The notes beneath the pieces were generated by a model. The model had not been told where the DNA came from, did no database searches, and saw nothing but the letters and a program-made list of their open reading frames with translations. 64,000 nucleotides of DNA from Escherichia phage vB_EcoP_PhAPEC5, in the sequence record NC_024786.1; one strand, 5' to 3'. Of the stretch, positions 25,132 to 25,581 are shown one piece after another. A program made the position numbers and the translations under genes. Within the stretch, counting starts at the first letter, position 1. Every line of letters begins with the position of its first letter.

Positions 25132-25581
25132 ATGCAAATCGTTCTGAACCAGTCTGAAGTAGAAGCTGCTATTGAAGCTTATGTAAATGAACAAGTTAAT
25201 CTTGCCGGGGACATTAATATCCTGGTGAATGCAGATGGTACTGCCACTATTGGTATCAACGAAGAGGTCGGTCATAGTGATGACACTCCACCCTTGGTAG
25301 AGAAGAAGACTCGCCGTCCTCGTAAGAACCCTCAAGAAGCCAAACACCGTCCGGTAGAACCGGAACCGGTTGTTGAGGATGAAGCCGAAGAAGAGGTAAA
25401 GGAAGAAGAAATCCAGACCTCTACTGGTGGACCGAGCGAGAGTTCTACGCCGGAACCTGAAGAAGCAGTAGCTGAACCAGAAGCACAAGAAGAAGTTGTG
25501 CAGGAGGAAGTTAAGGCAGAAGAACCAGCAGAGAAACCTGCTGCGAAGCCTTCACTGTTCGCTGGCCTGAAACGTAGTTAA
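25132..25581 (+). CDS. protein with folded N-terminal domain and highly acidic Glu/Pro-rich disordered tail (hypothetical)
   Basis: C-terminal approx 90 aa dominated by E, P, A, V, K (EPEPVVEDEAEEEVKEEE...). Confidence 0.45.
   Translation: MQIVLNQSEVEAAIEAYVNEQVNLAGDINILVNADGTATIGINEEVGHSDDTPPLVEKKTRRPRKNPQEAKHRPVEPEPVVEDEAEEEVKEEEIQTSTGGPSESSTPEPEEAVAEPEAQEEVVQEEVKAEEPAEKPAAKPSLFAGLKRS

Follow-up and report, generated by a model that had tools for sequence, protein, structure and literature searches.

A plus-strand gene at 25132..25581 in a 64,000-nucleotide stretch of Escherichia phage vB_EcoP_PhAPEC5 (NC_024786.1; the whole stretch is called the window below) encodes a 149-residue protein of the family that includes gp47 of phage N4 and Bes2 (gp61) of Pseudomonas phage vB_PaeP_C2-10_Ab09. 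We propose that this Gamaleyavirus member of the N4 gp47/Bes2 family is an accessory protein of the phage's Holliday-junction resolvase and acts as a tethered-peptide adaptor, a reading that we judge to have about an even chance of being correct. The gene lies directly behind a resolvase gene, and its product joins a small folded head through a disordered tether to a terminal peptide that recurs at both ends of the phage protein that binds single-stranded DNA (the SSB). That shared peptide is the only strictly conserved element beyond the 45-residue head. Bes1 and Bes2, which were named in mid-2026, defeat three signalling immune systems by a mechanism other than signal sponging, and the window protein is a further member of a family newly given a phenotype, in which Bes2-like proteins are genetically tied to resolvases from three families that are unrelated. 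Unpublished and testable additions to that picture are the SSB-mimicking terminal peptide, the resolvase linkage with its natural fusions and a corrected end for N4 gp47, and the analysis also draws attention to the N-terminal peptide of the N4 SSB, a classic transcription activator.

A gp47/Bes2 family member linked to Holliday-junction resolvases

The reading frame fills 25132..25581 exactly, from an ATG start to a TAA stop. It is a genuine gene and no chance open reading frame (ORF), since its product matches PHROG 7641 over its full length (E=5.2e-71; residues 1-149 on positions 1-151 of the 151-position profile), has homologs in 628 database entries at E<=1e-3, and corresponds to a coding sequence annotated at the equivalent position in related phages. 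The window belongs to a G7C/PhAPEC7-like, N4-like podophage (Schitoviridae, Enquatrovirinae, Gamaleyavirus); the 3-kb stretch around the gene is 96-99% identical to phages PhAPEC7, Bas96 and Mimir124, and a virion RNA polymerase gene of 3577 amino acids lies on the minus strand just downstream.

BLASTP connects the window protein to N4 gp47 (E=1e-8), and N4 gp47 in turn to Ab09 gp61 (E=1e-9). A hidden Markov model built from 66 family members, Litunavirus excluded, matches Ab09 gp61 at E=1.6e-10 (Z=1e6) and its 15 relatives at about 1e-10. A model of the N-terminal domain by itself matches Ab09 gp61 with 29 bits (bias 0.3, E=3.9e-5 at Z=1e6), and direct hhalign comparison of an Enquatrovirinae profile with Ab09 gp61 gives a probability of 72% over just 21 residues. 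Judged by these comparisons, the window protein is an ortholog of N4 gp47 (PHROG 7641) and a homolog of Ab09 gp61. The family is narrow, yet it is present throughout the N4-like phages sampled. We recovered 103 family ORFs in the roughly 100 loci retrieved around N4-type SSB genes, and an exhaustive search with the N-terminal 78 residues against 1.84 billion representatives returned only 14 matches, of which one, P0130, a low-complexity repeat protein of 2026 amino acids, was rejected as spurious. A tblastn search of GenBank phages with L022, the IMG/VR relative that is most distant, gave no match.

Within the Enquatrovirinae, N4 gp47 (PHROG 7641, with sister PHROGs 18842, 27655 and 7564) is the counterpart of the window protein by position as well as by sequence, although N4-type N-terminal domains carry an insertion of 4-5 residues in their hairpin (KATRGDDG) that the window protein lacks. 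We found no published function for N4 gp47 in the searchable literature. Bes2, from a Litunavirus, is more divergent, with approximately 25% identity to the window protein in a multiple alignment, but at 145 residues against 149 it has the same architecture of N-terminal domain, disordered Glu/Ala/Pro-rich tail and C-terminal SLF peptide. Its gene follows that of Bes1 directly, just as the window gene follows a resolvase that is 42% identical to Bes1, with a gap of 11 nt in Ab09 and 1 nt here. The two proteins differ in that the Bes2 tail ends ...GGSLFS without the GLKR extension of the window protein, and in that Bes2 lacks a basic patch of comparable strength and has a lower acidity (its net charge per residue is -0.10, against -0.18 here). 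The loci differ as well: in Ab09, gp58 and Acb4-Sequestin are inserted between the SSB and the resolvase, whereas in the window the SSB adjoins the resolvase.

The resolvase of the window (24576..25130, plus strand) is RuvC-like and N4 gp46-like (PHROG 159, E=9e-42), and is the ortholog of Ab09 gp60, or Bes1 (E=2e-47). Its stop precedes the ATG of the gp47-like gene by 1 nt, in agreement with an earlier sequence-only reading of this DNA that had placed the gene after a resolvase. The same arrangement recurs in 74 of 75 non-redundant N4-like loci, where the gp47-like gene comes directly after a Holliday-junction resolvase of one kind or another. The resolvase is a gp46-type RuvC-like enzyme encoded by a separate gene in 61 loci (median gap 4 nt), a separate RusA-like gene in 8 (median gap 1.5 nt), a RusA-like enzyme fused in frame to the gp47-like module in 4, and a classical RuvC encoded separately, with a gap of 0, in 1. 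PHROG scans of the fused forms reveal single ORFs that join a RusA N-terminus to a PHROG 7641/18842/27655 C-terminus. Because the resolvase has been replaced non-orthologously while its partner was retained, and because natural fusions exist, resolvase and gp47-like protein are likely to work together; the gene context is strong evidence for such cooperation.

The fusions are encoded at L056:4360-5298, L099:2214-3164, L096:4240-5082 and L053:4497-5150, and PHROGs 14238, 1682 and 21721 (‘RusA-like resolvases’ of 265-387 aa) and 33948 (280 aa, no annotated function) appear to be fusions of the same type. The gp47-like module that RusA fusions carry accounts for the weak match of the window protein to the 311-aa ‘RusA-like’ PHROG 14238. 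A programmed frameshift joining the two ORFs in the window was considered and rejected, as the frame of gp47 stays open for just 3 codons ahead of the ATG and no slippery site is present. The resolvase has a conserved end of its own (25090-25127, ...NLPAFQNLIKLIKA): gp46-type enzymes terminate in a helix-like P-x-F-Q-x-[LI] peptide, as in PAFQNLIKL in the window, TPAFQTILKL in the KP8-like contig L018 and TPMFQNLMRI in L022. This peptide has the F-x-x-L spacing of the SLF motif described below, and may just belong to the resolvase fold.

Protein architecture and the terminal peptide shared with the SSB

The whole protein has a pI of 4.3 and a net charge of -22. AlphaFold2, run on a 17-sequence alignment, folds residues 1-45 only (25132..25266, plus strand; MQIxLNQxEV...AGD..I.vNxDGT...), as a helix (7-21) and a hairpin (28-32/38-42) with predicted local distance difference test (pLDDT) values of 82-90, and this domain is kept in all relatives. 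Beyond residue 45 the model is unstructured, with pLDDT below 50 at residues 83-90 and 110-132. The compact N-terminal domain and disordered tail anticipated by the sequence-only reading are therefore both present in the model. That reading had also named homology of the N-terminal domain to a known structural protein as the finding that would speak against a role in host interaction, and no such homology emerged: Pfam has no family for the protein (its sole match, Menin at E=0.23, is compositional), a PDB profile sequence search gave no match, and the best Foldseek match of the model is no better than E=1.3. The domain, a helix and a beta-hairpin of about 45 residues without an OB fold, is too small for a fold to be assigned.

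The head is followed by a basic linker, residues 51-75 (25282..25356, plus strand; DDTPPLVEKKTRRPRKNPQEAKHRPV), that has a net charge of +4, is conserved in the Enquatrovirinae, and contains residues R61, R64 and K71 that are invariant in alignment A2. A comparable basic patch is found in 24 of 67 family members. The linker is loosely AT-hook-like, but we rejected its identification as an AT-hook because the window sequence, KKTRRPRKNP, has no Gly and hence no R-G-R-P core; a true GRP core occurs only in some relatives, such as L065 (RRRGRPAGS) and L106 (RRGPGRPKGS).

Residues 76-138 (25357..25545, plus strand) make up an acidic, disordered tether that is 36.5% Glu, 12.7% Pro, 12.7% Ala and 11.1% Val, has a net charge of -21 and contains zero aromatic residues. 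It is the most acidic 60-residue stretch (D+E fraction 0.40) among window ORFs of at least 100 aa. The very acidic, Glu/Pro-rich region that had first drawn attention to the ORF is thus real, but the description of an acidic C-terminal tail holds only for this segment: residues 51-75 are basic and conserved, and the last 11 residues are basic and hydrophobic. Both had been missed, as had the terminal peptide's standing as the most conserved part of the protein. The tether is conversely the least conserved part, fast-evolving and rich in indels, and many relatives align over the first 73 residues only in tblastn. Among 75 non-redundant relatives, the net charge per residue of the tail ranges from -0.25 to 0.00 with a median of -0.11; the window, at -0.18 with the basic patch included, sits at the acidic end, and many relatives have Ala/Pro/Thr-rich tails that are nearly neutral. 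Acidity is not the conserved property of the family.

These observations bear on the role first suggested for the protein, that of an acidic DNA mimic or polyanionic decoy titrating host proteins that bind DNA (restriction enzymes or H-NS, for example), or of a chaperone-like acidic protein. The tail is certainly strongly acidic in this phage, with a net charge of -21 over 63 residues, every tail in the family is net negative or neutral, and a strong negative charge is likewise found in Ocr of T7 and in ArdA. Those proteins, however, are rigid, folded arrays of carboxylates, whereas the acidic part of the window protein offers no folded scaffold with DNA-like spacing (pLDDT <50, no secondary structure) and is indel-rich, poorly conserved and dispensable in evolution. 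High negative charge is not maintained over the 75 relatives, in many of which the net charge per residue is near 0, and selection acts instead on the N-terminal domain and the basic/hydrophobic terminal peptide. Neither PDB profile search nor Foldseek finds similarity to Ocr, ArdA or any solved structure. Since charge varies across the family and the tether is predicted to be disordered, a flexible spacer that avoids sticking to DNA is favored over a DNA mimic, to which we give very little credence; a chaperone or nucleoid-associated role likewise found no support. Within the variable tether there is one island, residues 97-110 (25420-25461; TSTGGPSESSTPEP), with the pattern T-S-T-G-G-x-N-x-S-S-T, that is conserved between genera of the Enquatrovirinae (in Moo19, Jgk1 and L015 as well as several representatives). 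It could be a further linear motif or a site of modification.

The protein ends in the peptide KPSLFAGLKRS, residues 139-149 (25546..25578, plus strand), which supplies 5 of the 14 invariant columns of alignment A2 (P140, S141, L142, F143 and L146). The nearly invariant pattern [KR]xSLF[AG]xL[KR] is kept at the gp47-type C-terminus in nearly all of the 75 non-redundant loci. The i, i+1, i+4 spacing of L142, F143 and L146 is that of residues on one face of a helix, and Lys or Arg flank them. In some relatives (L064, L065, L088 and L041) a second copy of the motif lies within the tether, as commonly happens with short linear motifs in disordered segments.

The N4 reference annotation conceals this motif. 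Annotated N4 gp47 (L006:4679-5200; NC_008720 31678-32199) ends ...KKYRKKRLKNQYKPNLLCLQV, while the other frame reads ...EEAKEPVQAKPSLFAGLKR, so that once the frameshift is corrected N4 gp47 has the KPSLFAGLKR end that the ORF of the window displays directly. Several other Enquatrovirus isolates carry one extra nucleotide relative to the N4 reference at the end of gp47, and the ortholog in phage PMBT57 (L109:101-544) ends KPSLFAGLKR, which together show that the N4 reference has a 1-nt indel that hides the conserved C-terminus. The indel is either a sequencing error or a strain mutation.

The SSB of the window (23773..24576, plus strand) is of the N4 type and gp45-like (PHROG 743, E=1e-88; alignments A3, A4 and A6), and carries an SLF peptide at both of its ends. 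The N-terminal peptide is MSLFGNLKEK (23773..23802, plus strand), in which F4 does not vary in either A4 or A6, and L7 does not vary in A4 and is conserved to at least 90% in A6. The C-terminal peptide is GKSLFGKK (24550..24573, plus strand; the SSB ends ...GGKSLFGKK), in which S262, L263 and F264 are invariant or nearly so. F4, L263 and F264 are invariant in a 53-sequence SSB alignment with a mean identity of about 40% to the window SSB, and 120 diverse N4-type SSBs show an N-terminus of MS(x)[LI]F[GN]xL, typically MS(x)LFGNL, and a C-terminus of [RK][KQ]SLFG... The annotated TTG start of the Ab09 SSB lies 14 codons upstream of a conserved MFGNL N-terminus and is probably wrong.

In a six-frame scan of the window, [ST]LF[AGS] occurs at the ends of annotated or conserved genes only at the SSB N-terminus, the SSB C-terminus and the gp47-like C-terminus. 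We built a position-specific scoring matrix from 47 distinct gp47-type C-terminal sites and scanned it against the 66 ORFs in the window that are 100 aa or longer (21,055 positions) and 200 shuffled proteomes. The gp47-like protein itself ranks first with 30 bits and the SSB N-terminus second with 16.2 bits, above the maximum of 15.7 for the 200 shuffles; the next genuine match is the SSB C-terminus with 8.9 bits, at about the 95th percentile of the shuffles. Applied to ORF termini in 109 loci, the matrix finds no other terminus at 10 bits or more. Among the annotated genes of the complete Ab09 genome, just those of the SSB and Bes2 end ...SLFS, and an unannotated, overlapping 84-aa ORF ends ...NSLFT. 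No other carrier of the motif was found at annotated or conserved gene ends in the window, the 109 loci or the Ab09 genome. Co-variation between SSB and gp47-type C-termini (SLFS/SLFS in Ab09, SIF/PIF in L082, GLF/KLF in L088, and both termini non-basic in L041 and L042) is anecdotal and confounded by phylogeny.

Proposed docking, possible immune evasion and alternative explanations

As we picture the adaptor, the 45-residue head, in this lineage together with the basic and possibly DNA-contacting patch, would work next to or on the resolvase or the DNA junction. The roughly 65 disordered, acidic residues would serve as a flexible, non-sticky spacer that provides reach without non-specific sticking to DNA, and the terminal ...KPSLFAGLKRS, copying the end peptides of the SSB, would plug into the site that those peptides use. 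The resolvase module could in this way be coupled to SSB-marked replication and recombination intermediates, or to the switch to late transcription made by the SSB and RNA polymerase (RNAP), with the neighboring SSB, the beta-prime subunit of host RNAP, or another protein as the docking partner. We infer a shared docking site from the shared peptide.

Variable tethers that carry conserved docking tips are found in E. coli SSB (OB core, disordered linker and DDDIPF tip) and in the acidic tails of T7 gp2.5 and T4 gp32. The window protein resembles these in having a disordered, variable linker and a conserved terminal peptide, which is an architectural analogy only. In contrast to E. coli SSB, its tether and tip stand on a separate small protein that has no OB-fold core for binding single-stranded DNA (ssDNA), and the tip is basic and hydrophobic (SLFAGLKR) rather than acidic. 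The linker of the window phage's SSB is Gly/Pro-rich and basic, unlike that of the E. coli type, and the carrier of the peptide and the carrier of the pocket may be reversed.

A comparison with other SSBs suggests where such a peptide might dock. The AlphaFold2 model of the window SSB has a confident core at residues 30-232 (predicted TM score 0.74) whose nearest structural match is PrgE of plasmid pCF10 (Foldseek E=4.8e-4) rather than a classical tetrameric SSB; for the N4-type SSB there is no Pfam family and no sequence homolog in the PDB. PrgE, an SSB that is monomeric and forms filaments, binds the adjacent protomer with its N-terminal tail, PRD1 P12 likewise docks its C-terminal helix and tail on a neighboring protomer, and the N-terminal B-domain of T4 gp32 can be grouped with them as a terminal tail that binds the adjacent protomer. 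The N4-like system departs from these in that the gp47-like protein copies the SSB peptide, whereas for PrgE, P12 or gp32 there is no known third protein with a copy of the tail peptide, and in that the monomer model of the N4-type SSB predicts no docking. Docking of the SLF termini on the SSB core in cis was accordingly rejected as a candidate (pLDDT about 40-55, no docking), a result that is silent on binding in trans. Of the two SSB peptides, the N-terminal one is closer to the gp47 peptide, and only the SSB and gp47 carry the motif where a general hub would have more clients. For these reasons we favor a neighboring SSB protomer on SSB-coated ssDNA as the likely docking site, with the C-terminal region of RNAP beta-prime as the second candidate.

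The second candidate is central to a different explanation, in which the gp47-like protein would modulate late transcription. Its C-terminal peptide would mimic the activating C-terminus of the SSB and bind RNAP beta-prime, as a co-activator or a competitor tuning when or how strongly late (virion) genes are expressed, and its adjacency to the resolvase would reflect operon organization only. Work on N4 provides a foundation for this idea, as the N4 SSB activates sigma70-RNAP through its C-terminal residues, which are required for activating late transcription where ssDNA binding is dispensable, and contacts the conserved C-terminal region of beta-prime (PMC4496689). We found no residue-level map of the N4 SSB activating region in accessible papers. 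The SLF core is common to gp47-like and SSB C-termini, and in Ab09 the SSB and Bes2 end in an identical SLFS. Side tail fibers, which are a late product, determine the activation of Thoeris II (bioRxiv 10.64898/2026.06.04.730250), and fewer or later sensor-triggering virion proteins such as these could explain the anti-Thoeris effect of Bes2. The gp47 motif is nevertheless nearer to the N-terminal peptide of the SSB than to its activating C-terminal one by the scores given above, and transcriptional modulation leaves unexplained both the adjacency to resolvases and the fusions across three resolvase families. We consider this explanation unlikely.

Binding to a sliding clamp or a membrane has also to be weighed. 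In T4, gp43, gp33 and gp55 share a clamp-binding C-terminal peptide for gp45, a single hub that couples replication to late transcription. The N4-like case is similar in that more than one phage protein ends in one short peptide, but N4-like phages are not known to encode a clamp. The SLF peptides could be beta-sliding-clamp-binding motifs (compare QL[SD]LF, or QAMSLF of the delta subunit) or short membrane-targeting amphipathic helices (MinD-like, ...KRLFGG) that localize the SSB and the resolvase partner. SLF makes up the last three residues of the clamp-binding consensus, the peptides stand at extreme termini behind flexible linkers, and L142, F143 and L146 would share a K/R-flanked helix face. 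But the defining Gln at position 1 of the clamp motif, which is followed by a hydrophobic residue at position 2, is missing from almost all copies: the window protein has K-P-S-L-F, its SSB has G-K-S-L-F and M-S-L-F, and the equivalent positions in the family are mostly R, K or P. For a membrane anchor, two to three hydrophobic residues are few. Localization to clamp or membrane therefore strikes us as very unlikely.

What is known of function in this family comes from Ab09. Its gp60 and gp61 received the names Bes1 and Bes2, short for ‘broad evasion of signaling’, from a preprint of June 2026, in which bes1 (RuvC-like) and bes2 were each found to rescue Ab09 delta57-61 from Thoeris I/II and CBASS II-A; neither protein binds or cleaves cGAMP or His-ADPR, and neither triggers Panoptes (bioRxiv 10.64898/2026.06.04.730250). 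Both genes are non-essential, and Bes2 was described as having no recognizable similarity and a low-confidence structure prediction (bioRxiv 10.64898/2026.06.04.730250). The authors suggested that bes1 and bes2 may aid phage development and not be inhibitors per se (bioRxiv 10.64898/2026.06.04.730250), a suggestion that fits the adaptor picture; the preprint makes no mention of disorder, the motif, RusA or late transcription. The anti-Thoeris and anti-CBASS activity has been shown for Ab09 in Pseudomonas only. From the homology with Bes2, one would expect the phage to do without the window protein in hosts that lack immunity, but to become sensitive to Thoeris or CBASS when the protein is lost. 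The host-interaction idea of the sequence-only reading gains indirect support from the rescue by Bes2, though not in the DNA-mimic form in which it was proposed.

The same phenotype could instead mean that the protein is a dedicated anti-defense effector, with no role in replication or recombination, that acts on a sensor or effector component shared by Thoeris and CBASS, or that serves as a decoy of SSB termini aimed at host sensors for phage SSB. On hosts with Thoeris I, Thoeris II or CBASS II-A, Ab09 delta57-61 forms plaques again when given Bes2 alone, which binds none of the signals tested, and the gene lies in the anti-signaling hotspot of the preprint, where the window also has a homolog of N4 gp48 (Acb4-like; 27957-28349). 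Yet the gene is present in every sampled N4-like locus whose contig extends past the resolvase, in a fixed place by core replication genes, and such placement typifies core accessory genes rather than shuffled anti-defense cargo. No defense protein is known to bind a peptide of this kind, and the preprint's authors themselves raise a role in phage development instead. We regard a dedicated effector as quite improbable.

Interchangeable peptide tips, a point in favor of the adaptor reading, may already exist in an Ab09 mutant. The viable Cas3 deletion delta57-61, reported as 41,096 to 42,899, took away the final 51 bp of the SSB gene together with most of gp61 (bioRxiv 10.64898/2026.06.04.730250). 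Both coordinates (HG962375 41096 and 42899; L043, L110 and L111) fall on the first base of the 7-nt direct repeat CCGGCAG, implying a microhomology deletion of 1803 nt that is in frame. The predicted product would consist of the SSB core followed by the C-terminal 17 residues of Bes2, ...PAAKQAAPASTGGSLFS, so that the chimera reads ...GRPAPAAKQAAPASTGGSLFS. If the coordinates are read correctly, an SSB with a Bes2 tip supports near-normal growth, which is consistent with interchangeable tips.

More speculatively, N4-like phages may possess a hitherto undescribed peptide-docking network, in which a K/R-flanked SLF-x-x-L on both SSB ends and on the end of gp47/Bes2, or of a fused RusA, would address one receptor site that organizes SSB filaments, recruits the resolvase and possibly contacts RNAP. 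This housekeeping coupling, and not signal sponging, would then blunt Thoeris and CBASS; if so, Bes1 and Bes2 might, for instance, keep down the DNA or protein intermediates that set these systems off, or speed maturation. We offer the network as possible but doubtful.

Several points weigh against the adaptor reading itself. The motif is short, and its copy at the SSB C-terminus lies only at about the 95th percentile of shuffles. In AlphaFold2 monomer models, pLDDT is low to moderate at the SSB termini and at the gp47-like C-terminus, and none of these ends is docked. RusA fusions retain the N-terminal domain, so this domain must be more than a resolvase-docking module. Bes2 is active without Bes1 in the Ab09 system (bioRxiv 10.64898/2026.06.04.730250) and is thus not strictly resolvase-dependent. 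The anti-defense phenotype comes from a distant homolog, about 25% identical, in another host. The SSB-Bes2 chimera, finally, rests on our interpretation of the reported coordinates and not on the authors' sequence.

Neighboring genes

The gene order of the window, namely primase, Sak4-like ATPase, SSB, resolvase and gp47-like ORF, is that of N4 gp43-gp44-gp45-gp46-gp47, and is shared with N4, KP8, Moo19 and pSb-1. The primase (20770-22923, plus strand) is the counterpart of N4 gp43, and the Sak4-like/AAA_24 ATPase (22980..23732, plus strand; N4 gp44-like; Pfam AAA_24 E=1.3e-10, PHROG 124 E=8.6e-49) is the first gene of the recombination module. Directly 3' of the gp47-like gene is a conserved ORF (25590-25751, plus strand; PHROG 19025, E=5e-9) for a hydrophobic membrane protein of 53 aa. 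A similar frame follows N4 gp47 (MVATKLLLGVVVFIVLILLIV...), and the ORF is annotated in KP8.

The region from 25800 to 27800, which the sequence-only reading had called a structured RNA region, contains one tRNA only by ARAGORN, a tRNA-Ile with anticodon AAT at 27452-27530. Relatives have clusters of 5-6 tRNAs in this place, and the ORFs annotated in the region are tiny and unsupported. Beyond it, the plus-strand gene at 27957-28349 encodes a protein of 130 aa with 47% identity to N4 gp48 (E=2e-45). Its homolog in Mimir124 is labeled an anti-CRISPR in the annotation, while Ab09 ORF59 is N4 gp48-like in GenBank and an Acb4-Sequestin fusion according to the Bes preprint, which also cites work reporting an N4 acb4 (bioRxiv 10.64898/2026.06.04.730250). 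From these relationships, the locus probably also encodes a cyclic-nucleotide sponge at 27957-28349. In one metagenomic relative (L015:1056-2605), an insertion divides the Sak4-like gene into two ORFs; the inserted ORF, of 163 aa, reads from its sequence alone as homing-endonuclease-like (MSKKRFGNELHPLYTVWL...NYGAIGI...).

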